Position numbers and translations under genes: made by a program. DNA of 63,990 nucleotides, the filler included, from Jimgerdemannia flammicorona (lineage: Eukaryota): assembly GCA_003990765.1 (NCBI GenBank). It is 3 parts of 3 records of this genome, joined end to end, with 100 filler letters (N's around TTAATTAATTAA, not from the genome) between each part and the next. Parts side by side here need not be neighbours in the genome. Positions count along the whole stretch, not along the records: positions 1 to 21,507 come from RBNJ01001438.1; 2 more parts are not named here. The stretch is one strand, 5' to 3'. Positions 12,423 through 51,276 of the stretch are shown piece after piece (positions within the stretch are counted from its first letter, which is position 1; each line of letters opens with the position of its first letter). Under the pieces are notes generated by a model. It did not search any database and was not told the DNA's origin. It worked only from the letters and a program-made list of their open reading frames with translations.

Positions 12423-13253
12423 TGTAATAACTCTCACTTCTACCCCTCTCTTATTCTTTGGATAACTAAAGAAGTGGACTATTACTTAGGGACTTAGTAC
12501 ACAATGTGTACTAAGAAGCTTTCAGTTTGAAGAAGTGCTCACTTATAGTAGTTTGTAGCAGCAGTGCCATCTGTTTCAAAGGTCTTTCTCTGGTTTGCCT
12601 TCTATTTCAAAGGTCTTTCTCTTGTGCTCTATTTCGAGGGTCTTGTTCCTTGCTGTGCACAGACTGAATTTGCCTTGGAATTCAGGTTCAATGAGTTTAC
12701 TTAAGTCTTTGGGGATTCATATACTGGTCTCAGTTCTGGCAGAAGTTAGCTAGGCTTCTGGAGTTTAGTCAGAAACATTAGAGTCACTTAGGTGTCATTA
12801 CTAAGACTCAGGAGAATGTGTGTGTGTGGGGGGGACTTGATTCTTGTATCAAGGACTGAACTAAAACTGCTTTATTTTGGATGGAAACTGGGGGGTATTT
12901 ATACAAGTTGGTCCGCAATTTCTGACTAAGTATGAGTGACTAATTTGGGAACTATAGTGAGGTTTGTGATCATGACCTTTGTTAGGTGGTTTTGGGCAAA
13001 AAACACTTTGTGATCAAGACCTCAATTACTAGGCAATGATCAGCTACTGTGGCAACAGTTGCTGTAGCACTGATTGTTGGGGATAAGCTGGATATTGTTT
13101 TCCACATCATTTCACATCATTTATCATTCATCATTCATAATATTGTATGCCATGCTTCATTTGTATGATGATCTCATTGCTTGCTGGGTCACATGATCAT
13201 TTATAATCACTCATCGCATCTCATCTATTCACTCATTCATTCATTCTATTACA
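12423..13253 (-). repeat. G1 3' LTR (831 bp)
   Basis: TGTAATA...TATTACA termini; highly similar to 20808-21490; PPT AAGGGGGAAAGGA at 13254-13266. Confidence 0.95.
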
Positions 13254-14109
13254 TCCTTTCCCCCTTAGAAATCAATGTCCTTATTGACTTGGAAATTGAG
13301 AACCAGGGGAGAGAAAGGTGGTGAATCCTCCTCAGGGTTGTTGGTATCTTCTTCAGTAGTAGGGGGGGGGTGGTTGCTGATAGCTTGCTGTCTAGGATGG
13401 AGAAGTCAATGAGGTCTGCAAATTGTTCTTGCATTGGGATAGGTGCTGATGTAGGGGTTCTCTATCTAATGCAGTTGGGGCCATCTAAGTAGGGTTCTTG
13501 GTCCTCATGTCTGGGAATATCCATTCGGATGAGCAGTCCTTCAAAGAGGTCAGAGAGGTCTTGGAGCCATTGGTCAGGGTTGTCATTCAGGAGGGGGCTC
13601 CAGTAGGGTTCACAGTCAGTAGACTTGAGGGTGATCCAGGAGTTGGCTTCTTGGGCTACCTTGATCTCTAGTTCATCAACCTCAGGAAAGGAGAGGTTCT
13701 GGAAATCCTTCAGTTAGACATAGTTGAGATTGGAGATTGTAAAGGGTGTATGGTGTATGATTTGATAGACCTTCTTGGCAAGTCTTTGCTCATTTCTGTC
13801 TAGGTGGGTCCAATCAGAGACTTGGTCCATGGGCAGGTCCTTAGCCCATTGGAGGAGTTGATGGCTAATCTCATATTCATGCCAGATCTCTAGATGGCTA
13901 GTGACAAGGTAGGCTCTTTCGATGACTTTACAGTGGTTGAGGACATAATGTCCTAGGTCCTGGCAGGAGAGGTTAAGGGCCTCTGAGCAGCAGTTCCTTC
14001 CTTGGATAGCAACCTGGATATGTCCAAAGAGGTAGTCAACCTGGCTTGGAAGGGGCCGACTATGGTGGGCAGTTTGGCAACAGGTAGCTTAGTTGTAGGT
14101 AGCAGACAT
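13249..14109 (-). pseudogene. G1 accessory ORF3, unknown protein (~285 aa)
   Basis: ATG at 14109 with TATAAAT ~70 bp upstream; continuous frame with 3 transition-type stops; homologous to 23157-24039 and 59252-59928. Confidence 0.8.
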
Positions 14110-14363
14110 TCTTGTCTTGTCTTTTCTTTGTAAGGAGAGGGGGATGAGAGTTGTGGGGTATTCTTGTCTAGGATATTTATACTTATTCACCCATCTGATG
14201 TGACCTCTCTTTGGTCATGCTTTCTTGCAAAATATATGACCTATTGCTGTAAGCAGGGCATGTGCTGGTCACATGAGGAAATTCTGATTTCAAAGATATC
14301 ATTACTTATAGTTGTGGTTACACAGAGTTAACAGGTCTTGGTCCACTTTTTTTTTATCTGGTT

Positions 14364-14612
14364 GGCACATTTGCAAGGACTGGCTATCCTTGTCTAGGGC
14401 AAGGGCTCTCATTATCATGGCTGGGAGTTTGAACCTCTTGGAAATAGACTTTCTTATAATCCGAGGCAATTCCTAGTAACAATATCTGTCATGTAGATGG
14501 ACTTAGACTGGTTTTGACATTGTCAGCTTTCCTAAGTTCCATATGAAGTGTCCATCACCATCCAGTAGAGATGATACAGATGGCATGAAATGGAGTTGTT
14601 CAAATGTGTTTT
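14364..14612 (+). ncRNA. Candidate structured Pol III-type ncRNA, copy 1 (antisense to G1)
   Basis: 5' GGCACATTTG pairs with 3' CAAATGTGTT, then a T run; A-box-like at +8; B-box-like GTTTGAACC 14427-14435; conserved with 35230 and 51277. Confidence 0.6.
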
Positions 14613-14754
14613 GCTGTACTATACTAGATTGTTCTTTTGCTTGGGTATCTTCTTGTTGGTTATTCATAGTGTTCCCTTTTCATTGCAATGTTCAGTATTA
14701 TATGTTTCTGGATAAGATATGTAGTATCCTTCTGCTTACTATATACTCCAATAC

Positions 14755-17700
14755 TTAAAGCTGTAGTTCCTTCCTTTGCTGGGGAGTGAGTGTTTCCATG
14801 TAGTCCTGGAGGGCTTTATATGCATTCTTCAGGGCTTCTTCTTTTTCCCAGATAGCATCATGGGTGGGGTAGCCCTTTCACTTGATCAGGAAAAACCACT
14901 TGACTGTTTTGGGATATTTGCGGACCTTGTGGTCAAGTACTTCCTCAATTTCGAATTCCTCATAATCATTGATCCTAATTGGGGGTAGTGGTGGAATTGT
15001 ATGCTCGGGGAATGGGTTCTCATGGTAGTCCACCAATTGGCTGATATGGAATATTGGGTATACTCAGATATTGTAGGGAAGTTGCAACTTGTAGTTGACT
15101 TTACTGATTTTTTCCATGATCTTGTATGGTCCAATTCTTCTAGCACAGAGTTTCTTGGCTGGTTGTTGTGCTAGAGTGTCTGGGTGGAGGTGGTCTGTTC
15201 TAAGCATGACTATGTCACCAATATTGTAGGAGGCTTCTCTTCACTTCAAGTTCACATACTTGGTCTGGTAGTCTTGTGCTTCTATGAGAGCATCTCTTGT
15301 CATTCAGGTAAGGTCAGAAATGGTCTCAGCCAGATCTTGGGCTGCTGGGACTGCTGATTTCACAGTAGTACTCAGAGTCCTTGGGTGTTGACTGTGGTTC
15401 AGGAAAAATGGAGTCTTCTTCATAGAGGTTTGCTGGCTGTTATTGTAGGCAAACTCGGCATAGGCTAGGTACTTGTCCCAATTATTTTGCTTGTAACAGC
15501 AAAAGATGCTAAGCATCTGTTTGAGAGTCCTGTTGGTTCACTCAGTTTGACCATTAGTCTGAGGGTGGTAGGTAGTAGAGAACTTCAGCTTGGTTCTATG
15601 GAGGGAGAAAAATGCCTTCCAGAAGTTGCTTATGAACTTGACATCTCAGTCAGATACAATAGTGCTAGGAATGTCATGTAGCCTGAATACTTGATTGAGG
15701 AAAATCTCAGCAATCTCTGGTGCTGTAGAAATGGTCTTAGTGGGTGCAAAATTGGCTTGTTTACTTAGGCAGTCCACGAATACCACAATGGCATCCCATC
15801 CTGCCTTGGTCTTGGAGAGTTGGACAATGAAGTCCATTGCAATCTGGTCCCAGTTGTGACTTGGGATAGGCAAGGGTTGCAGGAGTCCTGCTGGTAGCTT
15901 GTTACCACTTTTGAATCTTTGGCACATCTCACATGAGGCCACAAAGTCTTTAATGTCCTTGGTCATCTTTGGCCAGTAGAACTCTCTTGAGAGGAGGTTG
16001 TAGGTCTTTTCGAAACCAAAGTGTCCTGCTGCAGGAGTATCATGGAGTTTCTGCATAACCTTGAGTCACAGAGTATCATTGTTGGATACAACCACTCTGT
16101 CATGGTCCCTGTAGATAAGTCCATCATGATAGGTGAATTGCTTGGCCATTTGCCTTATGGCTTCTAGAACCTCGGCCTCTGGGTCTTAGCAGAATTGAAG
16201 AAATTTTGTCATGGGGCTGACTTGCTGGTAGCCTTCCTTGATCATCTGGGTGAGGTCTTCAATTACTTCGACCATAAAGACAAGTTCATCTTCTATGTAC
16301 CTAGAGAAACTATCAGCCACATAGTTGGTTTTGCCTGGGAGATACTTGATTTCCATATCAAAGTTGGCAATGATTTCCATCCAGCGGGCTTGTCTGTGGG
16401 TCAGCATGGGCTGTGTGTGAATATACCACAATGTATGGTGATCAGTATAGGCCACAAATGGCTATCCTAGGAGGAAATGGCGAGTGCAGTGACAATAGCC
16501 AGGAGTTCCTTCTCATGGGTGGTATTCTGGGTCTCAGCTGGCTTGAGTTTTTGGGAAAGGTAGGCCACTGGACAGTCTTCTTGGCTGAGTACTGCTCTAA
16601 TAGCAATGTCAGAGGCATCTGTAGTCAGAGTAAATAGTCTGGTAGGATCAGGTACAATTAGCACTGGGGCTTCAGTAAGGAGTCTCTTGAGATAGTCCAT
16701 AGCCAGGGTGCATTCAGGGGTCCATTCAGTTTTGATGTTTACTCCTTTGCAGGCCAGGCTGGTCAGTGGAGCTGCAATAGCAGAGTATCCTTGGATAAAC
16801 CTTTAGTAATAACTGGCAATACCCAGAAAGTGCTGGAGTAGCTTGAGGGTAGTAGGGATAGAGATATCCTTAAGGGCTAATACCTTTTGGGGGTCTATAT
16901 TGATACCTTCAGCAGAGATAATGTGTCCTAGATATTCAATCTGGTCTTGATAGAACTTGTATTTGCTCATCTTGGCATAGAGCTAGTGTTCTCATAGGAG
17001 AGTCAGTACCTGTCTGAGGTGGGTGTAGTGTAGCTCTACTGTCTCACTGTAGATTAGTATATTGTCAATATACACAAGGACACAGATGTTGAGAAGTGGT
17101 CCAGAGATATCATTCATCAGATACTGGAATGTTGCTGGTGCATTGGTCAATCCAAAAGGCATGACGCGGAACTGGTAGTGTCCAAACCATGTTTGGAAAG
17201 CTGTCTTCTCGATGTCCGTCTCATCAATAAGAATCTGGTGGTAGCCATTTCGCAAGTCTAGTAGAGAAAAGGTCTTGGCCTTGAAGATTTGGTGTAGTAA
17301 CTCATCAATCCTAGGCAAGGCATACCAGTTCTTGATAGTGATCTTGTTGAGGGCTCTGTAGTCAATACACATTTGCAGAGAGCCATCCTTCTTCTTGACA
17401 AATAGAATAGGGGCTCCAAATGGAGAGCAGCTGAATTCAATATATCCTTGGGCCAGTAGTTTGGTTAATTCATCCTTGAGGGTCTTGAGCTCAGGTTGGA
17501 CCAGTTGGTAGATACTCTTGTATGGGGGTTCAGATACTGGAATAAGATCAATTCCATGTTGGATTTAGCACTTGGGTAGAAGTCCTTGGGGGTCTTGGAA
17601 TACATCTTGAAATTCTTCGAACAGTTCTTGAGCTTCAGTTAGAATTGGGCTACTTGTAGTTTCAGTGACTTCTTGTACTATACAGATGAAGTAGGTGTTT

Positions 17701-20700
17701 CCCTTTTTTCGAGAGAGTCTCTTCATTTGAATGGCAGAGATGATTTCAATTCCTTGGTAGTTGGTACCTTGCTGGGGTGTCAGGGTGATCTTTCTACCTT
17801 TGTGGGTCAGGTTAACCTCATTGGTTCTCCAGTTGATATCTGGGTTGTGCTGGGTCAACCAGGCTTTTCCTAAGATAATATCTTGTCCTGGGAGGTCTAT
17901 AATGCTGAAATCCAACTTCTCTTGATATTTGCCAATCTTGAGCAAAAGATCTTTGCAGATCTTGGTCAATGGTGCAGTTTTTCCATCACCAAAGGTAACA
18001 CTTCTTTTCTCAGTGGCTGGTCTGCTTTGGGCTCCAATCCTCTTGGCAGTCTTGGTGCTGATGTAGTTTCCAGTAGCACCACTATCAAGCAAGACATTGA
18101 CATTCTGTCTGTGGACTTGGCCTGTGAACTTGATGCAACTGTCCTCCTTCTTGATGGTATTGAGCTCTTCATCTTCATTGTTGTTGTTCCAATTGCTGTC
18201 AGTCTCCTCAAAGTCAGTTTCTCCTCATCCTTCACAAAGAGGGTTGTCTTGTTTGGGTTCCTCAGTCTGTTGGGCTTGGCTTCTTTCAGCATTGATTTTG
18301 AAAACCTTGAAGAGGTATGCATGGCATTTGCTGATATATTCTATACAGTACATTCAAATGGAATGAGGGCATCATCCACATAGTGCATAACTATTTACAA
18401 TTCTCTTGTACCAGTTTTCATCATCTTCCTTTATGGTAGTGACCTTTTGACTGGGAGGTTTGTTGGTAGATCCAAACCCTTTCTTGCCACAGTCTGTTTG
18501 GGAGAGTCTGGGGACTTCTTCAATGGTGAGATCTTGACAGATTTCTTTGATGATTGCTTGGGCAATTCTTTGGTCTGTTTTGACTTCAAATGATGTGTCT
18601 CTAAAATTTCACAAGATGACATGGATTTCACTAGTAAATCCTTGGTCAACTACTCCTCCTCCTAGTCTAATGTTGAACTCTTTGGCTAGGCTGCTTTACT
18701 CAGCAAGGCAGATGTATGTTCCTTTGAGAGCTTGTATTGCAATTCCTATTCGCACTGTAGCATTGGTACTTGGTGGAATGGTGAGGTCTTGACTACTGTA
18801 GAGGTCATATCCAGCATCAGTTGGGTGGGCCTTAGTAGGGATGGTAGCCTTGTACCATATCTTCTGTACTTTGATGATATTCTCAGGGGTTTTTTTTCCT
18901 GGACCTTCTCTAATGATAGTAATGTTCTGGTTACTGGGTTTGCCTGTTCTGTTCTTCTTCTCAGGACATCTGAATGAGATATATCATGCCTTCTTGCAGA
19001 TGAAGCACAATCCATTTTCATGGAGCTGCTTCTTCTCATCCTCAGTAGGAGGTCTGGGTCCTCTGGGGTTTCGCTGGTTCCTTTGGTCATTCCTTTGATC
19101 ATTTCTCCTCATAGGATTTCTCCTATCTTGGTTATCCTTCTTGTGTTCTTGATTATGTGAAGCTTGTACAGCAAGGATTTCACAGGCTCTTCTTTATACT
19201 TGGGCAAAGCACTATGAGTAGTGGGGGCATCCTTGGGGAAGACTTTGTTCCTTGATCTTCTGGGTAAGCCAGTCTGGTAGGGCTGCAAAAAGGTGGTTGG
19301 CTCTGGTACCATTGATGGCCAAATTGTTTTCCTGGTAGGTAAGTCCAATGGTTTTAAGATAGGCATCTATTCTGGTAGCAAAGGTCTCTAGATCCTCTTC
19401 GCCATTCTTGTGGAACTTCATCTGGGACAGTTTGTTCCAAGTTTCTTGTATGTAGGCCACATTTCAGAATTTGGTCAGTAGCAAGGCCTTGAGTCCTGGG
19501 CCTGCTTCATGGTCATCCCAACCTGGTCTATTGTTGGCAGGTACTTGTCTATTGACTTGGGGGCAGGCTTCCCAGGTTACTGGGTGTTGTTCCAAGGTTT
19601 GTCAGAATTCAGCTGCTGTTCCAGTGAAGAATGTGGCCACTGTTTCTACTTGTACTGCTGATGTGGCAAACAGCTATTGAAGGGTGCTGTTCTGGTTGTT
19701 GGTGAGCATTCCTATAGGCACTCAGTTGTCATTCCATTGGTTTGCTCAGTAGCCTGTGTCAACTGCATTGATGAAGTTTTCAATGTCACTGTTTTTTCCA
19801 CTGAATGTTGGGATTTGCAAGGTCTTGGTTAGTTTGTTCTGTTCAGCAATCTGTCCTACTATCCCTGCTAGTACTGCTAGCTGGGTGGTCAGTGCTGTAA
19901 TATTGATATCTACCATTGTTTTGACTATTAGTGATGGGTCTGTTGGGGTAGATTCTCTAAAGATTATTCTACTTGGTGGGGTTGTGGTGCTGTATGACTT
20001 GAGGTTACTTGATTTCTGGATATTAAGTCAAAGAGTCCTGTGAGAGAGGATAAACCAAATCTCTATATAGGTGGCTGAGTTGGTTCTGGGGTCTGATCTT
20101 CTTGACTTGTAGTTCCTTGGTAAATTTCTAGGCCTGCTGTTCCTCATTGGCTATCATCAGACTGGTAACCTGTAGAGTCTTCATCTGACTCCCTTCCCTG
20201 ATGAGATAGTGCATTCCCATACTGACTAGGTCCTTCAAAGAGAATATCAGTCTCTGGCTGGGTAAATGGGCCTGCTTTTTGTTCAGCAGTAGGGGATGGT
20301 TGGCCTACTTGCTTGTTCTCATACCTAGTTATGGCAGAGGCATAGTATATAACTAGCCTATAGTAGAGGGAGGTCTTGGTTGGGGTATTATGATATCTGT
20401 CAGAGGCAATCCACTTGGCAGCTGCTTCTCTTGCAGCAGGGGGTGTGATATAATCTAGAAAATCCTAGGTGACTGCAGTAGTAGATTCTGGGGTCCTAGT
20501 GGTTCCAATGTGTCCTTGGAGGAGTTCGTAGAACCCATGGTGGCTAACAATATTCTTAAGTCCTGAGTGGTATATTCTAAAGGCCTGGTATAGATTCTTG
20601 TAAGCCTGGTCAATTACAAGCTAGTGGGTTCCTGTGTCTGTGGTTTCCTAGTACCACCTGGTTCTAATGGCAAGGGCTTCTCTGGCTCTGGTTTGGGAAT

Positions 20701-20792: not shown

Positions 20793-20804
20793 CTGCTGCT
20801 ACCA
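20793..20804 (-). other. G1 primer-binding site, tRNA-iMet-like
   Basis: TGGTAGCAGCAG 3 nt after the 5' LTR. Confidence 0.75.
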
Positions 20805-20807: not shown

Positions 20808-21490
20808 TGTAATAACTCTCACTTCTACCCCTCTCTTATTCTTTGGATAATTAGGGAAGTGGACTATTACTTAGAGACTTAGTACACAATGTGTACTGAG
20901 AAGCCTTCAGTTTGAGGAAGCACTCGCTTATAGTAGTTTGTAGTGGCAGTGCCTTCTGTTTCAAAAGTCTTTCTCTTGTGCCCTATTTTGAGGGTCTTGT
21001 TCCTTGCTGTGCATAGACTGAATTCACCTTGGAATTCAGGTTCAATGGATTTACTTAAGTCTTTGGGGATTCATATATGTACTAGTCTCAGTTCTGGCAG
21101 AAGTTAGCTAGGCTTCTGGAGTTTAGTCAGACACACTAGAGTCACTTAGGTATCATTACTAAGACTCAGGGGAATGTGTGTATGTGGGGGGGACTTGATT
21201 CTTATATCAAGGACTGAACTATAACTGCTTTATTTCGGATGAAAACTGGGGGGTATTTATACAAGTTGGTCCACAATTTCTGACTAAGTATGAGTAACTA
21301 ATTTGGTAACTATAGTGAGGTTTATAATTGCGACCTTTGTCAGGTGGTTTTTGGCAAAAATCACTTTGTGATCAAGACCTCAATTACTAGGCAATGATCA
21401 GCTGCTGTAGCAACAGTTGCTGTGGCACTGATTGTTGGAGATAAGCTGAATATTATTTTCTGCATCGTTTCACATCTTTCATCATTTGTC
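20808..21490 (-). repeat. G1 5' LTR (truncated at gap)
   Basis: Direct repeat of 12423 onward. Confidence 0.93.
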
Positions 21491-23156: not shown

Positions 23157-24039
23157 TCAAATTTGACTAATAGAGCCATCCTTATATATCTTAAAGTTCA
23201 ATATGATAGGAATTATATTATTCTTATCTTTTTTCTTATTTTCTTCAAGGAGTTCAGTCAAATCATTTTTTGCATTCTCCAAAGTTGTATTGGGGTCAGT
23301 GAGAGGGTCTTGGAAGAGAGAAAAGAAGTTGTAGATATCATCTTCCAGTAGAATAAATGAGTTGCTATTATTTTTCAAATTACTTGAGAGAGTGATATCA
23401 TTCTGCTCTTAAGATCTCTAGTCAATGGTGAGGTTATTCACAAAGTAGAGAACATCTGTAGAGTTCTAAGGATAGCAGACTCTCAGAGGAGGGCCTTGAA
23501 ATAGGGCAATCAGACTATGGAGGAATTGATCTGAGTTGTCCTCTAGAATAGAGTTCTACTTTATTACTCTTAACTATGATAGTGGATTAGATCTCCTTGG
23601 TAACTATTTTCTTGAGGTGATCTGTACAGCAGCTTATCAATTTTTGAATATTAGAGATCTTGATATACTCAAGATTGAGAATAGCCCAAAGTACATGCCT
23701 GAAGATCTGGTGGACTCTTCTGGTTAGTTTTTACTTATATCTATTTATACATATAGTATCTTCAATTTCTTAAAAGCTGATCTGTGAGAACTTCTAATAG
23801 AGGTGATGTCTTATTTCATATTCTTGCTATATCCAGAGGCACTCAGTAGTGGTAGTAATTCTTATCTCCATTTTCCAGCAGTTGAGAGTATAGTGGTAGA
23901 GGTCTCTTATATAGAGATTCAGACTAGAGATCCTTCTTATATATAGTCTCATTATCCTCTTGATATTAGTAAGTATTTGTTCTTAGACTAATAGACTTGG
24001 ATAACTTCTTAACCTTACTATTTGGTAGATAGTAGGCAT
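23157..24039 (-). pseudogene. G5 accessory ORF3 homologue
   Basis: MPTIYQ..SLNLYIRDLYHYTLNCWK..QEYEIRHHL..RRVHQIFRH..ILEDNSDQFL..PIILNFKIYKDG; several stops and one frameshift. Confidence 0.8.
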
Positions 24040-24107
24040 TTTGTTTTATAGTGAGCTTTGTGATTGATTGATACCTTATCTTTCTTCTCTTAATACTTCT
24101 TTTATAT

Positions 24108-25448
24108 TATGATAAACCAAGACATACTACTCAAATTATACCTTAGCTAGTTGATACAAACAATTAGCCAGATGACATGAATATACAGCATAGTAACTAG
24201 TAACCATTACTGTAGAAACTGTATAAATAGCCAGATTACCAGATAAGGTATATTTATATAGGACCTGTACACCTATATAGGATCTATACACCTATACAGA
24301 ACCTGCACAATCTGCTATAAGTAGCAAATCTATAGTTAGCCATGTAGCAACCAGATAGCAACTAACTTGTATAAATTACCCCAGAGATAAGAGTGAATAA
24401 ACCTCAGTCTAAAAGTTAAATACAAACCAAAAGCAAAAGTCAATTGTCTGGTATACTTAGGAGAAATGTCTGCCAAAAGCCACTTGATCCAGGAAGGATT
24501 GCAATACTTAGGAGATACACCTGCCAATGAACCATTGCTAAGAAGTTGTGAGCTTGGTTCTCTTCTCTTTCACTCTGGTCCACTTTCTGATACAAAGCTG
24601 ATTTTGCTACCAAGTTCGAGTGAAGAACTTTGCTACCTTTGGAATTATTGGTACACTTGCCAGATAAGCCTAAAGAATCTGAGTTTGCTGCCCAAGTCAA
24701 GGAAGAACTTCACTGCCATTTCCCAGTTAAAGCCACCAATTCAGGAAGAATTTGCACTATCTGAGTTAATTCTTAGTTAAGCCACCATTTTCAAGAAGTT
24801 CACTGATTCAGGAAGAATCCATATCATCTGCTGTTTTCAAGTTATCTGCCATATTTCCAGTTGAAGCCACCATTTTCAAGTTGTCTGCATTCCCAGAGAA
24901 CCCATACTGTCTGATTTATTATTCCCAGAGAACTCAATTCATACTGTCTGAGTTGTTCATTGTTCCCAGTGAGCCAAATTAAGTTATCTACCAGAAATTG
25001 CATACTTTTGGAGATTGTCATGCAGAGATTGCCATTACCCAAGAAGGAAAACTGCTAAATTGACTGACTGTCACCCCACGCTACACAAGAGATCATCATG
25101 CCAGAAATTGCATACTTTTAGAGATTGCCTTGCTATACAAAATTGTGGCATTCCCAGTTGACCTAAATAAGGAATCCATCATGCTACACATGAATTCTAC
25201 CAATTCTCAGTTGACCTAAGAAGGAAACTCATTCACATAAATTGCCATCATATCCAGAGAACTATCTTAATAAGGAAATCACCAGAATCACTTACAGATA
25301 TCCAGCTTTGACTATTATACCACTAAACACCAAGAACCTTAGAAATTATTGAACATTTTGTTGCTTTTGACAAAGTAACTGAGGGCTCAAGCCAAACTAC
25401 ATCAACCCCCAACCTTATAATTTGTCTCCATTGAGCTGGCACATTACA
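24108..25448 (+). repeat. G2 5' LTR (~1341 bp, internally repetitive)
   Basis: TATGATAAACC (mutated TGTGACAAACC)...ACATTACA; direct repeat of 33642-34929. Confidence 0.93.
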
Positions 25449-25465
25449 TTTGGGCTCAACTGGGA
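25449..25465 (+). other. G2 primer-binding site, tRNA-Pro-like
   Basis: TTTGGGCTCAACTGGGA resembles TGGGGGCTCGTCCGGGA. Confidence 0.55.
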
Positions 25466-28400
25466 ACATTTCAAATCGATGTGACTTTTCAGCTCACAAG
25501 AACCCACAGTCAAACTGGATACATTTGATACAACACCAACCTCTGCTACTATAGGAGAACTAGTTATCACCAGTATCTGGACAGAAAGAGAAGTAATCAC
25601 ATTAAGACTTGCCAACTACCCAGTATCAGAAGGTTCCCAATCAGAAGGCAGTATAGCCCAAAATCCCCAACCAGATCAACCAGACAATACAGGCAGCCCT
25701 ACTAGAGATTTTGAAGAACTTGTATAAGAACTAAAAGATCTTATCACATGAACCTGAGACTTTACAGCCAGATACCCCATATAGTCCCACCAATCTCACT
25801 AATAGAACCTTTACCACAACCTCTTGTAGAATTGGAAGTAGTCTCTACAAGAATACCTAGACTTATCCCACTTTGTCCAAGGTCCAGAACACCATCCTCA
25901 AGATACCCAAGCACCCTTATCTCTAGTAATAGCTCAGAAAGCAAATCAGAATCAGAATCCAAACCCAAACCAGAATCAGAAGAAAGTGACAAAAAAATGG
26001 CCACCTTATTACCAACCTTTGCAGGATACCTGGAGGAAGACCCCAGAGAATTCCTTGATGGAATTGAAGGAATCACAGTCTTGAGAAGTCTCTCAGATGA
26101 AAGAAAAATCGCCATCTACAAAGCTCAGCTCAGAGAACCAGTCAGAGGAATTTTCCATCAAACAGCAAACAACCCAGATTCAGAACTGATAAGACAGATA
26201 CAAGCAGCAATGTCCTATGAGCTAGAATATGAGGCCATGGTCCACTGGCTCATTAAAAAGTATGCAGGAAATGAAACCCATCACAAGGCTCAGGAATCCA
26301 TCATAGAGATAAAGATGAATCTTGGAGAATCACCTAGAGCCTTCTTCACAAGAATCCAGAAGAGAATGCATGCTGCTGAGTTCAATGCCACCAATTAGGA
26401 CATCATCAGTCCAATGACCTTCATGAATAAAATTCCCCCAAACATTGCCCAGCATATTCACACCCTAGGCATCAGAAGGTCTGAAGAGCAAGTAGATATA
26501 GCCCAAGAATACTTTGATATCAGACAAGGAACTACCTAGAGTGATCATGACAGAAAAGAAGAGAAAGAAGACATTCTGGTCAAAGCCCTACAAGGACTCC
26601 TTCAAGGACAAGAAAGATCCAAAGAAAGAAGGCCAGCCAAGGAAGGAAAGAAGGACAGAAGTGAAATCCAAGACCTCAGCTCCAAGTTGGACTGATTGGT
26701 TGGACAGATTGAAAAACTCACTATACACAAAAATCAGAGCTACCAAGACAATAGAGGATACCCACCACAGAGAAGCCAAGGCTACCCACCTAGAGATAAC
26801 AGGAGTTATCAGCAAGAAGAGAGAAGATACTCTGTCTGGGACAGAGCCCAAGTCCAATGCTTCCACTGCAGACAATTTGGACACTATACCACTGAATGTA
26901 ACAACAAAAGAAGTGACCAAAGGGACTCAGAACCACTAAACTGAAGGAATGACACTCAGTATAAGAAGACTGAAGCCTATCCTATAGAAGATTTCGAGGA
27001 AGCAAGCAACAGTGAAGACTATAGTGATCTAGACTTGTACTCTACTAAGGTCACCTCTTAAAAAACAGTTTACCCAGTAGAGAAAAGGAAGAGACCTGTG
27101 GGAAGGCCATCCAGAAATATCAGCAGAAGAATCATCCAAGAAGAAGATAAAGAACATGAAGAGGAACAGATAGAAATACCTCTCCAAACTCCCTCTCCTT
27201 TTGTTCTCAAGATAAACAAGTTGCCACCAGAAGATGAAGAAATAAAACAAGAAGAATGGGAACCTGTTGCCCCAAAGCCCAAGAAAAAATACACCTCAAA
27301 GACCATACCTAGAGACATCTACAATGAAGTCTGGCAGAAGATCCAAGAAGCCAAGATGGAAGTTCCCCTCCTGCAGTTCTTATAACTGACACCAGCTGGA
27401 GTCTGAAACAAATTACTAAGAACCACCAGGTCTAGCACTAGCTGAGTCCCAATCCCACAGCAAGAACTAGTTCCCATCTCTGTTCAGGCAGCTGAAAGAC
27501 ATGTCAGCACCTACCTACATAGAGATATTGGAGGACAAAAGATGAAGATTCTCATAGATACAGAAGCAGCTATCTATATCATTGCCAAACAGTTCCTGGA
27601 CACCCTTCAATGGCCCATTAATGGATCATCTAACCTCAGCATCATAGTAGCAGATGGAGCCCAAACTCAACCTCTTAGAGAAGTATAAAATATCATCATC
27701 TCTCTTGGACACATTCAGTTCTCCATCCCTAAAGCTGTTATCACCAAAGCTGTCACCTATGATATGATTCTTGGCATCAACTGGATGAAGGAAATGAATG
27801 CAGTTGTTGATATTGGCCAACAAGTACTCAAGTTTGATTATTGAGATAAGAAATATAGAGTTAAGGTGACCAGCTACAAGCAATCAAAGAAGAAGAAGAA
27901 GGTCACTATTCAGGAAGAATATATCAGCAGTGAAGAATCTACTATAGAAAAAGAGGAAGAATCTGAAGATGGAAATGATCCCAGACTCAATCCCTGAATT
28001 AACCTGGTGGATGACAGACCAGATGACAATGTGTGAGCTAAGAACACCATCCCCATCACTATTGGAGTCATTGCAGGAGAAGCCAAAGGATGCCCTATCT
28101 GCCTCAAGAGACACAAGTGTCCTGAGCACTCCTCCAAGATCATGGGAACAAGAAAATCACCTGGTACAGCCTACCTAGAGTACAGAAGGAAGAAGAAGAA
28201 ATGCAGATATGTTTCAGAAACACCTGCAACTGAAGTTACAGAAGTACAAGCAATTTGGGGTCAAGAATTATCTGAGGAAGAAGAAACTTCTGATCAAGAA
28301 GTCTCTGAACAAGAAGCACCTAAAGAAGAAGAAGTCCCTGAACTCATTCTCTGAGATGATTCTCATTGGACACCACCTGAAGAAAATGACCATTGGAATA

Positions 28401-29164
28401 CAGAAGAAGGACCCAGTACAATCACCATTATCTCTAAGAAAGAAACTTATCAAGAAAAGGCTTTTTGACTAGGAAGATGTCTACACCAAATAATCTTCTA
28501 CTCCCCCCAAGACTACTACTATCAGTGCCACTTACTAGATCAATAGGAAAGACAGAGACCCCAGAGACCAGAATCTCTGAACATACTTGCACAGTCAACT
28601 ACCTTTCAAGAAATTACCACCAAGTTGCAAAGCCAATTCAGGGGACAAGGCTTCTTCACCCAGACAGAAATATATCTCTTATCTACTCTTCTACCCACCT
28701 ATGACTAAGATGGGTACCATTTCCCAAGACAACAAGAAATCAATAACTAGGAACATCATTTCTGAGCAATGAGATATTGCAACCATGGAAGACACCCAGA
28801 CTGCCAAGACTACAGGCATCAGAAGATCCATCTCAGTCATGATGTTGCAGTCTATACCTTAAAGAGAGGAGATAACCAAAGTCAGATCTGAAAAAGTCAG
28901 ACTAAAAAGCCAGAAAGAAGGACCCTCAAGATTTACAATTTAGGTGAAGACATCCTAGCTCTTATCAGACATGCAACCTGCCAAGGATGGGCAGAAGATG
29001 CCACCAACTTCATGGAAGCCCTTGACCCTACAGGAAGAAGGAGAATCAACTATCTCTGAGATCCCTCTACTAGAGCCAGATGGCCACACCTCAATCTTAG
29101 AGCTTGGAGACTCTCTGCTAGTGGAGCCTCAGCCTTAAGAAAGCCTGAACTCAGTAAGGATATC

Positions 29165-29572
29165 ACCCAGTATGCTCTGCTCCACCCCAAGGCCAAACCC
29201 CTAACCAAAGCCCACCCAGAGGATATAGGATATGATCTTCACAGCCTGGAGGACAAATCTATCAAGCCTGAAAAAACCTTTATGATCAGAACTGGATTAG
29301 CCATGCAGCCACCCCAAGGAGCTTACATCCAACTGACCTCAAGGTCCGGACTTGCCAGACAAGGAATAACTATGGAAGGAGAAACCATTGACCCAGGATA
29401 TACAGGCAAAATTAAGATCATCCTACACAACAGCAGTGCAGAATGGTACTGAATCATTAGAAGACAGAAGATTACCCAAGCAGTTTTCATGAAAGTCAAG
29501 ACCTTATAGTTACAAGAAGTCTCTGAACTAACTGAAGAAATAAGACAAGTTAAGGGATTTGGAAGTTCAGAT
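29165..29572 (+). pseudogene. dUTPase domain in G2 (between protease and RT)
   Basis: DIGYDL, SRSGLA, TIDPGYTGKI, KITQ, RQVKGFGSS. Confidence 0.9.
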
Positions 29573-31972
29573 AGGAAGGAAGTACACCTCCTTCAAGTCA
29601 ACCACCTTAAGAGAAATGTTCTCCAGCAAGTGTACTGGCAACCAGTCAGATTGTACAAGAATCTTATCCTGGAGCCCAGAGAACAAACAACCTTCAAAAT
29701 CTTTACACCACCCAATCCCAGAAACCTTTTCTTTGAATCCAAAGAAGATATTCCCTATCTGGATATAGAGGGATACACATTCTCTGACAAGATGAACCCA
29801 GTACACTCCCAAGCAACCAACCAAAGTTAAGAGACCATCATCTTGCTGAAAGGAACCATCATAGGACATCTGGTGTCTTTTCTCAACTGAACTCATAGGG
29901 AAGTTTATAAACTAAACCTATTGGGAAATGGCAAAAGGTCCCAGAAGAAAGGAAAGGCCCCTCTGCGATCCAAGAGACAGTGAAGCCTTCTACCAACATT
30001 GGAGAATAATTGACACCTCAACAACAACAACAACTAGTAGAACTTCTCAACAAATATCAAGATATCTTCACCATTAATTATGGCAATCTGCCATACAATC
30101 CATCATATCACTATAGCATAAATACAGGAAATGTAATACCCATCTGGCAGAAATCCTATCGAATACTCCATCACTTGAAAATATTTGAAAAGGAGCACAT
30201 CTAAGAACTCTTAGACAATGGAGTCATCCAACCCTCTACCAGTTCTTAGGCTAGCCCTATACTTATTGTACCAAAGAAAGGAGGATGGAGACTTTGTGTA
30301 GATTACAGAAAACTCAATTCAGTTACTGAGAAAGATACTTATCCTTTGCTTAGAATCGATGACCTTTTGGATCAGTTACAAGATACCAGATACTTCAGCA
30401 GTATGGACCTCTTTGCAGGATTCCATGAGATCCCCATGGACCCCAAAGACATTCAAAAGACAGCCTTCCTTATCCTAGGAAAACTGTTTGAATACTTCTG
30501 AATGCCCTTTGGACTTTGCAATATACCCCCCACCTTCCAGAGGATGATGAATTCAGTGTATGTTCCTCTGATCCACTACTGCCTGATTGTATACATAGAT
30601 AATTCCAACATCTATTCAGCAAATTTTGAAAAACACCTGCATCACCTAGAGGAATTCTTCAAGCTCACTTGCAAGAATCACTTGAGATTGAATATAAAGA
30701 AATGCTACTTTGGGAAACAGAAACTTGAATTCCTAGGATTTATAGTTTCAAAAGAAGGAATCTATACAGACTCAAAGAAAATTGAGAAGATCAACAATTG
30801 GTCAGTATCCAAGACCCTAAAGAAAACACTATCATTTCTGATACTAGTATCCTACTATAGAAGGTTTATTAAGAATTTTGCCCAAATCGCTGCCCCAATC
30901 CAAATCCTTCTCAAGAAAGAAGTGCCATTCAAATGGACAGAATTACAAGAAAAAGTCTTTAAAAAATTCAAGAGCTGTATGACTGCAGCACCAATCCTTA
31001 TATGCCCCAATCTACAGAAACCATTTATCTTATATACAGATACTTCTAAAGATGGCCTAGGAGTAGTTCTAGCCCAAGAAGGACCCGATCAACAGTACCA
31101 TGCAATAGCTTATATAAGCAGAGCTACCAATCAGCAGCAGATGAACTATAGTAGCACCAAACTAGAATGTCTTGCAGTTATATGGGTGGTCACCCTGTTC
31201 AAGCATTATCTCATCAGAAAAAGGTTCACCCTGATCACAGACTATGCAGCCCTCAAATGGTTATTCAACCACAAGAAACCAACCAGAATTCTAGTCTAAT
31301 GGATCCTTATTCTTCAGGATTACAAAATTACTATCATCCACAAAGCAGGAAAAGCCCATAACAATATTGATATACTTTCCTGCCAACCCTAATGAATCAG
31401 AAGAAGAGTGTTCTGAGGAACTATACCCTAAAGGAAGCCCCTCAGACCATTAAGGCACAAGAAGATCTTATCCAAAAAGAACATAAGAAAGTCTACCAAG
31501 GACAGGCAAATGTAGAAGAGAAGCTGCGAACAATATACCAACATTGGCCCAACCTGAGAACACAAGTATGAGACATATTCAAGAAATGTGATACCTGCCA
31601 GAAGTACCAAGGAAGGAAGAACTATCAAGCACTACTACAACTAATCACACCACTAAACAACATCTTTCAGAGATAGGGAATAGATGTAATTGGACCTCTA
31701 CCAATTATATCAAATACATCCTTGTATTTGTGGAACATCTGACCAAGTGGCCTGAGGCTTTTCCAATGGAAATTGTGGATGCCCTAACTATTGTAGGTCT
31801 TCTCCATGGACTCACACTCAGATATAGACCCCTAGAAGAACTCATCTCTGACTGAGGCACAGAATTCATCAATAATATAATCATAAGTTATGCTCAAATT
31901 CACAAGATACATCTCAAATGGACTACATCATACTACCCCCAGACCAATGGCATGATAGAAAGGATGAACTAG

Positions 31973-32597
31973 TGAGGAGGAATATAATGCTCAACTTCCG
32001 CTCAGGGCACCTTATCATAGAGAGTTGCTTCGACTGTGAGGAGTGCCATAATGTAGGGTAGGAAGAGGGCTTTGTACAGATACCAGAACACTGGCTAGAA
32101 GAGTGTGTGGTGTTGGGAGACTTTTGGTGGACCATTAGGGATCACTTGGGGGTGAGGTGTAGGGGTGCTGAAGTATGGGGGAGGTGGGAGGACTTGAAGG
32201 ATTAATTGGTAGGAGGGGTAGGTAAGGAATAGCTCACCTTAGATTGGGCTTTGGCCATTTGGGTGAGGCTGGCCAGTCACTGACTATTTGTTTTTAAGGA
32301 TAGGAGGAGACAGGAATTGGAGAGCTGATTGTTGTGATGGCAGAGTCTTATAGAAGATATCTTGACAGGCTGGTGGCTTGGTTGGGGGCTGCAGGGTGGT
32401 CAGAGGTGCCACTTGGTGGAGAAAATCTGTAGACAGAGTGGCAGGCGAGTTGGAGTAGTTGGTGAGAGAGTGATCTTTATTCGTGAGGGGGTGGAGAGGG
32501 GCTCCTCTATAGGGATTGGGTAGTGGGTGATGATAATGTATAATTATTCATAGACTGGTAATAAAGACATTTGTTAACTTAAAAAAAAAAAAAAAAA
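31973..32597 (+). mobile_element. 5'-truncated LINE-A copy A3 inserted in the G2 integrase
   Basis: Matches the ORF2 3' end of A2; poly(A) 32581-32597; ~16-bp TSD AGAAAGGATGAACTAG (31957-31972) / AGAAAGAATGAACCAG (32598-32613). Confidence 0.92.
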
Positions 32598-33085
32598 AGA
32601 AAGAATGAACCAGACCATCAAGAAAGGACTTGTCTGAGTCAATTCTACCAATTGGGACCTCTGCTTACCTGAGATCCTATGGGAAATTCAGAATACTCCT
32701 GTCACCTCAACCAAACAAAAGCCATTTGAAATAATGTTTGCCAAGAAAACGAGAACTGCTGATCATGAGAACCTTGGAGATCTCCTCAAGAAGACAGAAC
32801 AGTTATATAATCAAATCTGAGGTCAGATTATCAAAGCCCAAGAAAGATAAAAGAAGTACTATAACTAAAGACAGAAGAATCAGGAGATCAAGATTAGAGA
32901 TCAAGTACTAGTTTGAAGAAGTATGATTGAAATGAATTTTGCTGCCAAACTGGAACCTAAATAGAAAGGACCTTATCTTGTACACAATATCAGAGAAACC
33001 AGTATCTATTTAAGAAGCATGGATGGATGAACCCTCAGAACACCAGTGCACATCAATCGCCTCAAGATATATCTTTCCCTATATC

Positions 33086-33601
33086 ATAAATCAGAGAGTT
33101 GACAACCACCTTCAAACTCTTGTTCTCAGCTCATTTCAATCACTGCCAGTTCCTCTACCCCAATTCTGAGAAGTCAATGGGAACACTCTCCAAAAGATCC
33201 AGATTCACCAAGAGAATCTTGTTCTGGCCAGACAGTTGCTACAGGTCCACTAACTCCAGACCCATTATGCCATTGAAGAACAATTGCAAAACCTCCCAGT
33301 CCTGGAACAAATATATATCAGAAATACCACAGAACTATCAAGAAGAAATGCCACTACTGCAGACAGACTGTACACACTTTATAAGCAAAACCCTGCAGCC
33401 CTGATACAAGCACAATTCTTCTGGTATGACATATAAGAAATGAACCTAGCCACCTACCTAAGTATCATCAATGTTGTTGAAATCCTATTCTCAGAAGAAG
33501 AAGAAGAACCCTTGGAATGGAGTAACCATGATATAGATAATGAAGATGATGAAATGAGTATTGATGCAGAAGATACTTATCCACACTGGGATGATGACTA
33601 A
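33086..33601 (+). pseudogene. G2 short accessory 3' ORF (~170 aa, acidic tail), possible distant ORF3 homologue
   Basis: Frame +1 relative to integrase, ATA (ex-ATG) start, 3 transition-type stops, ends just before the PPT. Confidence 0.55.
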
Positions 33602-33641
33602 AGGATAGTCTGAGGACAGACCATCCTTTAGTGGGGGCTGA

Positions 33642-34929: not shown

Positions 34930-35229
34930 ATATCTTAAGGGTCTGCTCCTTCAGTCTAGAGTATAAGGTCACCTGACTTGAGTAGTATACTGCTGAAGTC
35001 ATTATGAGTCATTATGAGTTTAGTTGCAGATCATCTTATGATCAAGATGAGTCATAGTTGAGTCATAACTTGTAACTGGTGGCTTGCTAAGTCTAAGCAG
35101 TCCTCAGATTCTGATGTCACTAGTTTCAAAGATATTGTTTCATCTGCTTCTTGCAAAATTAGAGCCATCTTTAGCAGTTGTAGTTATACAGAAATAGCAG
35201 GTCTTAGTTTTTTTTTTTTTTAGGCTTTT

Positions 35230-35479
35230 GATATATTTGTGAGAACTGGCCATTCTTGTCTAAGACAAGGGCTCTCATTGTCATGGCTGGGGTTTTGAAC
35301 CTCTTAGAAATAGTATTTCCTATAATCTGAGACAATTTCTAGTAGCTTATCATCTATTATATGGATGGACTTAAGACTGGTTTCAACATTATTAGCTTTC
35401 TTGAGTTCCAAATAAAGTGTTTATTATTCTTCAACAGAGATGACACAGATTAGGTAATCAGAATTATTTAATGTATTTT
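35230..35479 (+). ncRNA. Candidate structured ncRNA, copy 2 (antisense to G5)
   Basis: Collinear nucleotide similarity and near-identical length to 14364-14612; more decayed. Confidence 0.55.
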
Positions 35480-51182: not shown

Positions 51183-51276
51183 TCTCCCCCTCCTTAAAAA
51201 TCAATGTCCTCATTGAATTCTCAAAGTTACACAAAATAAACAATAAGACTAAAAGAAACTTCAAATTAAATATATT

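Follow-up and report, generated by a model that had tools for sequence, protein, structure and literature searches.

A 3' accessory region in Ty3/Gypsy retrotransposons of Jimgerdemannia flammicorona: an orphan gene and a non-coding patch with apparently separate histories

The region that follows pol in a clade of Ty3/Gypsy retrotransposons is, with fair probability, an accessory region made up of an orphan gene, ORF3, which has an internal promoter, and a non-coding patch that has been exchanged between lineages separately from the gene. The elements concerned lie in a window of 63,990 nucleotides of Jimgerdemannia flammicorona DNA, which was analysed as a whole and is a dense nest of insertions. 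Positions 13249-14612, described in an earlier note as a cassette of an RNA and a protein, are the tail end of a decayed minus-strand Ty3/Gypsy chromovirus, G1. Gypsy lineages with a chromodomain (G1) and without one (G5) do have in common, as that note had proposed, an accessory region that encodes an unknown protein. The orphan gene ORF3 evolves under coding constraint, probably has a promoter of its own, and is present in several Gypsy lineages, which are abundant in soil samples. The patch appears to be a clean case of exchange between retrotransposon families and, with its palindrome and hairpin, is a candidate cis-element.

Anatomy of the elements

All the terminal landmarks of an LTR retrotransposon are present in G1: the LTRs begin with TG and end with CA, a primer-binding site follows the 5' LTR and a polypurine tract precedes the 3' LTR (Table 1). 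The two LTRs are 87.6% identical, and contigs from metagenomes break off at 12423, the end of the 3' LTR. On the minus strand the Pfam matches occur in the order RVP_2, RVT_1, RT_RNaseH_2 and Integrase_H2C2. The C-terminus of the integrase matches Chromo (PF00385, E 1e-7, 32.2 bits at a cut-off of 25.1), which bears out the assignment of G1 to the chromoviruses. Downstream of pol the order is patch, spacer with TATA box, sense ORF3 and polypurine tract. The junction 'GGACATTGATTTYTAAGGRGGG' at the polypurine tract is the same in G1, in the metagenome locus L001 and in a third element, whose LTRs occupy 50782-51182 and 56148-56558 (the 51-kb element). The primer-binding site TGGTAGCAGCAG of G1 recurs at the 56-kb end of the latter and in metagenome copies.

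Table 1. Coordinates of the features in the window
Feature	Position	Strand	Remarks
G1 3' LTR	12423..13253	-	starts TGTAATAG at 13253, ends TTATTACA at 12423; ends read directly
G1 polypurine tract GGGGGAAAGGA	13254..13264	-	immediately after the ORF3 stop codon
ORF3, decayed copy of G1	13265..14109	-	ATG 14109; ~281 codons; true C-terminus PLVLNFQVNKDIDF and stop at 13265
G1 spacer, presumed ORF3 promoter and 5' UTR	14110..14285	-	TATA box TATAAATA at 14174-14181
Conserved non-coding patch ('RNA candidate' of the earlier note)	14286..14612	.	~330 nt, right after pol
Non-conserved stretch, from the pol stop codon (14752-14754) to the patch	14613..14754	-	
G1 gag-pol	14755..20464	-	gag, dUTPase, PR, RT, RNase H, IN, chromodomain; interrupted by stops and frameshifts
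G1 primer-binding site TGGTAGCAGCAG	20793..20804	-	two bases past the 5' LTR
G1 5' LTR	20808..21486	-	outer end lost to assembly gap
G5 ORF3	23190..24039	-	ATG 24039, many stops; tblastn 33-35% identity; profile iE 4e-37, 7e-13
G5 ORF3 leader	24040..24109	-	TATAAAA at 24100-24106; nested element 3 nt upstream of the TATA box
Nested non-chromodomain Gypsy element splitting G5	24110..34924	+	10.8 kb; Pfam domains; outside the cassette
G5 spacer	34925..35121	-	three TGAGTCA sites at 35005-35065; homologous to G7 spacer 59866-60169
G5 patch copy	35122..35479	.	overlaps last ~5 codons of G5 pol (stop codon 35464-35466)
G5 integrase, C-terminal part	35467..36285	-	without chromodomain
Third chromovirus, without ORF3	51183..51385	-	diverged core 51274-51385, including intact GGTTCGAACC
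G7 ORF3 copy, P0003 subtype	59062..59865	-	no core recognisable upstream
G7 spacer	59866-60169		TATA box and 2 TGASTCA sites

G5 is split by a nested Gypsy element, the LTRs of which (24110-25446 and 33644-34927) are 84% identical. Once this element is removed, the order in G5 equals that in G1, with spacer and patch together at 34925-35479, and the arrangement that the two elements had been proposed to share becomes visible. One alignment with G7 is continuous across the junction of the nested insertion. The G5 integrase is 45% identical to that of G1 over 33 residues and 42% identical to that of the nested element over 64 residues. The last 164 residues of G5 pol (35467-35958) have no match to Chromo, as had been claimed, whereas G1, G6 and the element at 50.8-56.6 kb do match.

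The third chromovirus carries the core of the patch joined, within ~60 nt, to the last codons of ORF3 (NEDIDF and the stop) and the polypurine tract, and is an element with core and no ORF3. G7, as the earlier note had described, has ORF3 recognisable alone. The window holds three ORF3 copies detectable by profile search (G1, G5 and G7), each sense-oriented and in the same position. The suggestion that G2 and G4 might carry the gene did not hold up, since matches in the strand-skewed 'G2/G4' are not significant (E 0.13-0.16; iE 0.73-4.4 with the profile). Homology to ORF3 is not established either for the sequence that follows pol in G6 and in the nested element, because the profile matches there have iE of 0.73 and 4.4. 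P0008, the homologue of the reading frame of G6, has no profile similarity to ORF3.

The arrangement belongs to an element family and not to a single copy, because metagenome contigs bridge its junctions. Contigs of four runs, from soil or other sources, cover all 30 bins of 12400-16100. They span the pol stop (14646-14816), the right edge of the patch (14489-14663), its left edge (14102-14355, 14149-14344) and the ATG of ORF3 (14001-14241, 14051-14277). The matching public runs consist of DNA or contigs, contribute a small share each and are mostly soil metagenomes. They are independent samples rather than independent species, because they may include the source organism of the window. A scan of metagenome contigs gave one locus, L001, of 1535 nt; a scan of viral contigs gave none.

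ORF3 and its presumed promoter

ORF3 is a genuine protein-coding accessory gene. The copy in G1 is decayed: it has three in-frame stops (14089-14091, 13714-13716, 13462-13464) and a frameshift in the region of 13400-13420. Aligned to each other, the copies in the window are 33-36% identical and need no gaps. A search of 1.84 billion representative proteins found just five relatives, including intact reading frames of 214-342 residues; the E values with G1 ORF3 are 7e-84 for P0001, 6e-57 for P0002 and 7e-33 for P0003. P0002, P0003 and the L001 reading frame are naturally intact and open to expression and study. The L001 and G1 genes share 61% of their amino acids and differ by 52 synonymous and 80 non-synonymous codon differences in 204 codons. 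The differences per codon position are 61, 40 and 93 (p 1.6e-5), and it is this concentration at third positions that demonstrates coding constraint. Transversions between the copies in the window are also skewed by codon phase.

No Pfam family was matched by the ORF3 pieces or by five intact homologues at E up to 5. A profile search of the PDB with ORF3 gave a best E of 0.74, which is at chance level, and the best score in the ESM Atlas was 0.88, where the clusters are unnamed or unrelated. The homologues P0001, P0002, P0003 and P0006 have neither a signal peptide nor a transmembrane segment, their highest Kyte-Doolittle means over 19 residues being 0.59-0.66 (0.97 for the unrelated P0008), and the ORF3 protein is not Env-like for this reason. 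The isoelectric points are 4.6-5.9. ORF3 codes for an acidic, soluble protein some 250-340 residues long that belongs to no known fold or family. The AlphaFold model has a pLDDT of 35 and a pTM of 0.23; with low confidence, it predicts that the N-terminal ~215 residues are mostly helical. Two short motifs, F-x-[DN]-L-I-x-F and P-x-[VIT]-L-N-[FI], are found in the acidic tail. Host-like paralogues were absent from a collection of 15 billion proteins, in which just short repeat-like contigs were found.

The spacer upstream of ORF3 is likely to be an internal promoter, as judged from its motifs. In G1 the TATA box is located 72 nt upstream of the ATG, in agreement with the earlier description. 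All four ORF3-bearing copies (G1, G5, G7 and L001) have a TATA box upstream of the start codon, at a distance of 67-150 nt, and the ATG is conserved as well. There are 14 TGASTCA sites in the window, three of which are inside 61 bp of the G5 spacer and two in the homologous G7 spacer; the G1 spacer contains none. ORF3 would then be transcribed by Pol II as a subgenomic mRNA, starting at the spacer promoter and ending in the 3' LTR. The TATA box in every ORF3-bearing copy would serve as the promoter signal, together with the clustered TGA(C/G)TCA sites in the G5/G7 lineage. Both the promoter and the mRNA are deduced from these motifs. The protein would work in trans for its element, and one may guess that it is an adaptor to a host factor bound through the motifs of the tail.

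The patch and its exchange between lineages

The patches of G1 and G5 are 77% identical (14310-14581 vs 35176-35450), and the similarity reaches into the spacer, as had been noted, in the islands ATTCTGAT and TTTCAAAGATAT present in both copies. A third copy was found with nhmmer at 51274-51361. Between G1 and this 51-kb copy three islands survive, the remainder having diverged like pol (transversions 0.22 vs 0.25). One of the most conserved islands, CAAGGATAGCCAGTCCTTG, at 14374-14392 (minus-strand writing), forms a hairpin, the motif of which occurs three times compared to 0.04 expected. A 7-bp hairpin has two compensatory pairs in L001, four sequences having been compared. Another of the most conserved islands is a 10-nt palindrome, GGTTCGAACC, at 14426-14435, which resembles a B box. 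It is kept in all three copies of the window; its CpG is decayed in G1 and G5, and is intact in the 51-kb element, while metagenome copies have G at 14426. In four of four copies the patch has the same position and orientation with respect to pol and the polypurine tract. No core is recognisable in G6, G7 or the nested element. By eye a sense reading frame in the patch looked suggestive. This reading was dropped because there is no codon periodicity (phase differences 30/23/25, p 0.5) and there are indels of 1 and 2 nt.

The patch is long established in these elements: L001 and the chromovirus that lacks ORF3 have diverged versions of it in the equivalent position. It is not part of an obligate pair with ORF3, because the core occurs without the gene in the 51-kb element and the gene without a detectable core in G7. 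The two occur together in G1, G5 and L001 and apart in these two elements.

The comparison of G1 with G5 points to a history of the patch that differs from that of its surroundings. Transversions make up a fraction of 0.06-0.07 of the patch (0.073 over 301 nt, with four in the central 157 nt), whereas the fraction is 0.28 in ORF3 and 0.30 in pol, where 99 nt are comparable. The boundaries of the similarity are sharp. The transition fraction in the patch, ~0.18, matches decay after insertion: the G1 LTRs differ by 12.4% and those of the nested element by 16%, and in run X1 transitions account for 334 of the 387 variant places. The incongruence shows in L001: its ORF3 is far closer to G1 (transversions 0.14), yet the divergence of its core is far greater (0.21 over 96 nt). 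These comparisons involve four copies of the core, the overlap with L001 being ~100 nt at the end of a contig and that with G5 pol 99 nt.

The best explanation of the near-identity of the G1 and G5 patches is a recent exchange of the patch segment alone between the lineages. The exchange probably took place by template switching between co-packaged RNAs, or by gene conversion. A less likely cause of the likeness is very strong selection on the patch, confined to G1 and G5. ORF3 does not seem to have been exchanged together with the patch, its divergence being about equal to that of pol; the gene may be ancient in both lineages, or it may have been swapped long ago. The earlier proposal that a whole cassette had been exchanged by recombination is therefore retained for the patch, but not for ORF3.

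Possible roles of the patch and relation to known elements

tRNA genes and tRNA-derived SINEs, which have type-2 Pol III promoters, carry an A box and a B box at a set spacing and a T-run terminator. The earlier note took the patch to encode a structured antisense Pol III transcript of ~250 nt that could act with ORF3 as a ribonucleoprotein or anti-silencing system and moves jointly with it; such an RNA would be tRNA- or SINE-like. The patch has some resemblance to type-2 Pol III genes, namely the B-box-like GGTTCGAACC kept in the three window copies, a plus-strand TGGC ~46 nt upstream of it, and a downstream T4 run (14609-14612 in G1, about 35474-35477 in G5). Furthermore, ARAGORN at thresholds of 70-80% draws a plus-strand cloverleaf in G1, G5 and the 51-kb element, in each case at the homologous place. 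The anticodons of these models disagree, however, and plainly spurious calls appear alongside; at default settings none of the four sequences is called. Pairing is present in 73.8% of the cloverleaf cells compared to 72.4% after shuffling, and 154 of 500 shuffles of the four sequences score as high. The A box amounts to TGGC alone, which is weak against the commonly known consensus. The patch folds no more stably than shuffled sequences (z for G1 +0.90 on one strand and +0.44 on the other; for G5 -0.13). Rfam has nothing at the gathering threshold, and up to an E of 10 none of its tRNA and SINE families matches. Unlike tRNA genes and SINEs, the patch has no matching model, no supported cloverleaf and no evident separate high-copy status. 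The palindrome does not point to the antisense strand, because its sequence is the same on both strands, and a B-box-like motif together with a drawable fold does not amount to evidence for a structured RNA. Core and ORF3 are moreover found apart and were apparently not exchanged together. A structured RNA made by Pol III and coupled to ORF3 is thus very improbable.

It is possible, if unlikely, that the patch is a cis-acting element used by the sense genomic RNA in replication. Either the perfect palindrome GGUUCGAACC would serve for dimerisation or co-packaging, or the patch would correspond to the 3' half of a bipartite primer-binding site of the Ty3 style and pair with a tRNA through its T arm. 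A cis-element would be kept with or without ORF3, and a dimerisation site shared by the lineages would allow cross-lineage co-packaging and hence the exchange observed. The constant placement of the patch, the three surviving islands, the compensated hairpin and the evident exchange all favour such a role. Its absence from G6, G7 and the nested element speaks against it, as does the absence of significant complementarity between the core and the 5' leader (equalled in 28 and in 65 of 100 shuffles). The known retroviral dimerisation sites are located in the 5' leader, which argues against the first version. The 5' primer-binding site (TGGTAGCAG...) looks like an initiator-tRNA-Met site. Initiator tRNA T loops read AUCGAAA, a poor complement of the palindrome, and the T-loop type of the patch seems wrong for this tRNA; both points would count against the bipartite version and its likeness to Ty3. 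In Ty3 the primer tRNA pairs through its T arm with the 3' segment of the primer-binding site, which is in U3 and the 3' untranslated region (PMC5371799). As far as that account describes it, this segment resembles the patch in being non-coding, in lying in a 3' untranslated part and in its T-arm-like content, and it too would be kept regardless of accessory genes. The patch differs in being upstream of ORF3 and the polypurine tract, whereas the Ty3 segment described there is in U3. A broader version is highly doubtful: the patch would be a transferable cis-module of Gypsy genomic RNA, in which GGUUCGAACC and the hairpin serve dimerisation or co-packaging, or else bind TFIIIC/Pol III, with the ORF3 protein as the trans-acting factor that recognises the module. 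Being common to chromodomain and chromodomain-less lineages, the module would lead to their co-packaging and recombination.

Two further alternatives concern ORF3. The gene occupies the position of env, and in G1 and L001 a pyrimidine-rich run ending in AG is found just upstream of the ATG. ORF3 could, like env, be expressed from a spliced subgenomic RNA that is driven by the 5' LTR, with no internal promoter, and the patch would hold splicing or export signals. G5 lacks the pyrimidine run, however, all four ORF3 copies have a TATA box, the core is retained in an element without ORF3, and the protein has no signal peptide or membrane segment. This makes splicing distinctly unlikely, and the internal promoter remains the preferred reading. 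In a window so dense in insertions, the cassette might be suspected to have come into this copy by a chance nested insertion, or to be a host gene captured once, and so to be no feature of the element family. We give it next to no credence: the three ORF3 copies share position and orientation, the stop codon adjoins the polypurine tract in G1 and L001, the last codons are left in the 51-kb element, contigs bridge every junction, and there are no host-like paralogues among the 15 billion proteins. The chance-insertion reading is largely refuted.

To our knowledge, the accessory genes of LTR retrotransposons beyond env are poorly understood, and the fungal ones are little more than boxes labelled 'add. 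ORF'. ORF3 is a new orphan member of this known class. Such an 'add. ORF' of unknown function is drawn for fungal chromoviruses, and Athila has an env-like ORF (PMC2864245). ORF3 was compared with the former by description only, and the two may be the same reading frame. In bdelloid rotifers, types of ORF3 are common to diverse retroelements (PMC5408684). Like the additional ORFs of LTR retrotransposons, the present ORF3 is in sense orientation, lies between pol and the 3' LTR and occurs in more than one Gypsy lineage, and the 3' region is modular as in other retroelements. Unlike the known ones, it is an orphan without Env features or an esterase or exonuclease domain, and it has an apparent TATA promoter of its own. 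Recombinant LTR retrotransposons that arose by template switching have been described (PMC1950507). The patch resembles these in being a short internal segment with a history unlike that of its flanks. It differs from the recombinants described in that source in that the apparent exchange is between chromodomain and chromodomain-less elements and is confined to ~330 nt of non-coding sequence.

The interval between pol and the 3' LTR

The window consists of decayed LTR retrotransposons nested in one another. Its self-comparison gives two direct repeats, 12423-13128 and 20808-21486, that are 87.6% identical and enclose the domains of a Gypsy element, G1 (see the table). The C-terminus of the G1 integrase carries a Chromo domain (E 1e-7). 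The LTR ends, the primer-binding site (PBS), the polypurine tract and the domain order identify 13249-14612 as the pol-to-3' LTR interval of a minus-strand chromovirus. After pol, this interval contains a conserved non-coding patch of about 330 nt, a spacer and a sense accessory gene, ORF3. The outer end of the G1 5' LTR is missing at the first N run (21508-21607). This run and that at 43112-43211 surround a TTAATTAATTAA linker and are read as assembly gaps, corresponding to the record joins.

Features of G1 and related elements in the window
Feature	Position	Strand	Remarks
G1 LTR	13253 to 12423		TGTAATAG to ...TTATTACA; ends read from sequence
G1 primer-binding site	20804-20793		TGGTAGCAGCAG
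G1 polypurine tract	13264-13254		GGGGGAAAGGA
G1 domains (Pfam)	between the LTRs	-	dUTPase, aspartyl protease, RVT_1, RNase H, integrase zinc-binding domain
G1 ORF3	ATG 14109 to stop 13265	-	single frame
ORF3 copy, G7	59062-59865	-	profile search iE 2e-81
ORF3 copy, G5	23190-24039	-	profile search iE 4e-37 and 7e-13
51-kb element, LTRs	50782-51182, 56148-56558	-	Chromo domain present
Junction bridged, pol stop	14646-14816		contigs
Junction bridged, patch right edge	14489-14663		contigs
Junction bridged, patch left edge	14102-14355, 14149-14344		contigs
Junction bridged, ORF3 ATG	14001-14241, 14051-14277		contigs

The order pol, patch, spacer and ORF3 is a feature of the family and not an accident of one copy. 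Contigs of four public runs (from three studies; soil metagenome is the label of all but one, and the runs possibly include the source organism itself) were aligned to 12400-16100 at a likeness of at least 80%. They cover 30 of 30 bins and bridge every junction, which argues against a chance nested insertion as the source of the arrangement, a possibility raised in the earlier note. In run X1, 334 of the 387 variant places are transitions, and over the same region the window has A/T against G/C in other copies more often than the reverse. This excess and bias fit deamination-type decay of the G1 copy, either RIP-like or by way of methyl-cytosine. Contigs leaving the LTR at 12423 run on with the same sequence in all four runs, namely the PBS region in 5' LTR context; the family consensus PBS derived from them, TGGTAGCAGTGGATTACC, resembles an initiator-tRNA-Met-like site.

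The counterpart of G1 14310-14581 in the element G5 is 35176-35450 (77% identical), confirming that the patch is common to the two. It lies a short way beyond the right LTR of a 10.8-kb element on the plus strand (LTRs 24110-25446 and 33644-34927). The flanking sequence shows that this element is a nested insertion in the minus-strand G5: an integrase fragment of the minus strand is at 35848-35946, an ORF3 copy is immediately left of 24110, the insertion junction has a TATA box (24100-24106) and an ATG (24039), and one alignment of the joined G5 halves with the contiguous element G7 spans that junction. Removal of the nested element gives the G1 order, pol, patch, spacer, TATA box and ORF3, as had been claimed for G5. 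A Chromo domain was not found at the end of G5 pol (stop 35464-35466), and the C-terminus of the G5 integrase has its nearest counterpart in the nested element, which is chromodomain-less (42% over 64 aa). Where the 3' LTR region of G5 is expected, 22151-22907 contains three tandem units of about 307-312 nt that are 82-86% identical.

ORF3, an orphan accessory gene

Two further copies of ORF3, both on the minus strand, were located in the window by tblastn and profile search, and the gene is present in several lineages, as originally proposed. The G1 copy is interrupted by in-frame stops at 14089-14091, 13714-13716 and 13462-13464 and by one frameshift near 13400-13420; its true C-terminus, ...PLVLNFQVNKDIDF*, was placed by comparison with homologues. 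Five relatives, three of them with E <1e-30, came out of an exhaustive HMMER search through 1.84 billion representative proteins. Among them are intact ORFs (214, 247 and 342 aa) and a 259-aa cluster member, and in their sources they are labelled 'hypothetical protein' or are nameless. One further match, P0005, was rejected as a wrong-frame call on another copy. L001, the sole metagenome contig with DNA for the comparison, encodes an ORF3 with 61% amino-acid identity to that of G1. Over 204 codons there are 52 synonymous and 80 non-synonymous differences, distributed over the codon positions as 61/40/93 (p 1.6e-5). The positional bias, these counts and the existence of relatives show that ORF3 is a real gene with coding constraint.

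The protein has zero Pfam matches, its best PDB hit in a profile search is only E 0.74, and the best ESM Atlas score, 0.88, identified no family or fold. The conserved part of about 215 residues is predicted to be mostly helical in a low-confidence AlphaFold model (pLDDT 35). In the alignment it is followed by a variable acidic tail with two repeated short motifs, F-x-[DN]-L-I-x-F and P-x-[VIT]-L-N-[FI]. The pI is 4.6-5.9. An Env-like protein was rejected because no hydrophobic segment was found.

ORFs of this kind, located after pol and before the 3' LTR, are already known as a class. One survey of Gypsy elements in fungi figures an 'add. ORF', of function unknown there (PMC2864245), and among LTR elements of bdelloid rotifers some ORF3 types are reported as common to very different retroelements (PMC5408684). 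ORF3 joins this class as a new orphan member, the 'add. ORF' of the fungal survey being compared by description only. The open-access texts searched for accessory ORFs and dUTPase of fungal Gypsy elements yielded no description of the ORF3 protein or of the patch.

The patch as a probable recombinant segment

What is real in the patch is its sequence conservation. The antisense structured RNA formerly proposed here is not borne out, since the patch folds no better than dinucleotide shuffles on either strand of G1 (z +0.90 and +0.44) or in G5 (z -0.13). Rfam gave no match at gathering score anywhere in the window, and its search of 13000-14900 with E up to 10 recovered neither a tRNA nor a SINE family; ARAGORN with default settings found none in the window and none in four sequences of the conserved core of the patch. 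Relaxing the thresholds to 70-80% makes ARAGORN propose a plus-strand cloverleaf in three copies at homologous positions, with disagreeing anticodons, and also other, plainly spurious models. The cloverleaf is not supported, as in the four-sequence alignment 73.8% of its cells pair versus 72.4% in shuffles, and 154 of 500 shuffles score as high. RNAalifold keeps solely a 7-bp hairpin, CAAGGAU-AGCC-AGUCCUUG, in which L001 has two compensatory pairs. A coding patch was rejected: the G1-G5 differences per phase are 30/23/25 and the alignment has 1- and 2-nt indels.

The conserved islands are GAGGTTCGAAC, within a perfect 10-nt palindrome GGTTCGAACC that is B box-like to an equal degree on both strands; the hairpin, whose motif occurs 3 times versus 0.04 expected; and YTGTRTAAC. 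All three are present again in a third element, located near 51 kb (the 51-kb element), whose core is 51274-51385. Some 60 nt past this core follows ...TTCAATGAGGACATTGATTTTTAAGGAGGGGGAGA and then TGTAAC, comprising the end of the ORF3 coding sequence (NEDIDF*), the polypurine tract and the LTR start, with no ORF3 between the core and these codons. Read most simply, this element has lost ORF3 through deletion; alternatively, an ancestor may have gained ORF3 by insertion into such a site. In G7, ORF3 is present together with a spacer homologous to the G5 one, and no core is recognisable upstream of them. The core was not found in the element G6 or in the nested element. Patch and ORF3 are thus separable, and the paired cassette of non-coding RNA and protein described in the earlier note is not supported.

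Divergence was measured by transversions, because transitions are inflated by decay. Between G1 and G5 the transversion fraction is 0.28 in ORF3 (405 nt) and 0.30 in pol (only 99 nt comparable), but 0.073 in the patch (301 nt), with just 4 transversions in the central 157 nt. Flank values are 25-40%, with sharp edges near 14286 and 14612. The patch transition fraction, about 0.18, is that expected from post-insertion decay, given LTR divergences of 12.4% in G1 and 16% in the nested element. The two patches were therefore nearly identical at insertion, in very different surroundings. Between G1 and the 51-kb element the fractions are 0.25 in pol and 0.22 in the core. L001 is the closest ORF3 relative of G1 (0.14), yet its core is far more diverged (0.21, 96 nt). 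This incongruence, drawn from four core sequences, with an L001 core overlap of about 100 nt at the contig end, points to a recent swap of the patch alone between a chromovirus and a chromodomain-less lineage. Exchange among retrotransposons, as first suggested, stands for the patch and not for ORF3, which is about as diverged as pol and is without sign of recent swapping. Template switching is already described as yielding recombinant LTR elements (PMC1950507). The patch is best viewed as a sharply bounded recombinant segment with a putative cis role.

Possible workings and neighbouring elements

A TATA box precedes the ATG in every ORF3-bearing copy, by 72 nt in G1, 67 nt in G5, about 90 nt in L001 and about 150 nt in G7. 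TGA(C/G)TCA sites, which we take to be of the Gcn4/AP-1 type, are clustered in the spacers of the G5/G7 lineage: 3 of the 14 in the window are packed into 61 bp of the G5 spacer, and the homologous G7 stretch has two; none was found in the G1 spacer. From the TATA boxes and this clustering we infer an internal Pol II promoter, which would produce a subgenomic ORF3 mRNA ending in the 3' LTR and a protein acting in trans. Divergent Pol III/Pol II transcription of the cassette is not supported. For the patch, the first-ranked option is a cis-element of the genomic RNA, either a site for dimerisation or co-packaging that is based on the palindrome, or a segment like the 3' PBS of Ty3 (PMC5371799); complementarity to the 5' leader is not significant. 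A TFIIIC or Pol III element ranks next, and hitch-hiking on recombination, with nothing beyond it, ranks last.

An accessory ORF after pol may be a general trait of Gypsy elements in this genome. G6, a plus-strand chromovirus at about 43212-49100, has its own at 47753-48904 (+), which is about 384 codons long, contains 5 stops and has an acidic tail; it matches the ORF3 profile weakly and only N-terminally (iE 0.73). Its one database homologue, P0008 (57% identical), is not similar by profile to the ORF3 family in the part that it covers. The nested element has an ORF after integrase, 33000-33640 (+), with an acidic tail directly before its 3' LTR and no significant similarity to ORF3 (iE 4.4). 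At least four elements contain dUTPase domains, at 18375-18983 (-), 29060-29449 (+), 49983-50660 (-; a 226-aa ORF with a full-length match, E 2e-22) and 54873-55625 (-), and their position relative to protease and RT varies. Finally, 1-6400 and 36285-43111 are inverted copies, 77-84% identical, of one element with extreme strand skew (GC skew about -0.45 and +0.45), long open frames on both strands and RVT_1 as its sole recognisable domain. Solo pieces of it break up other elements, for example at 31973-32569.
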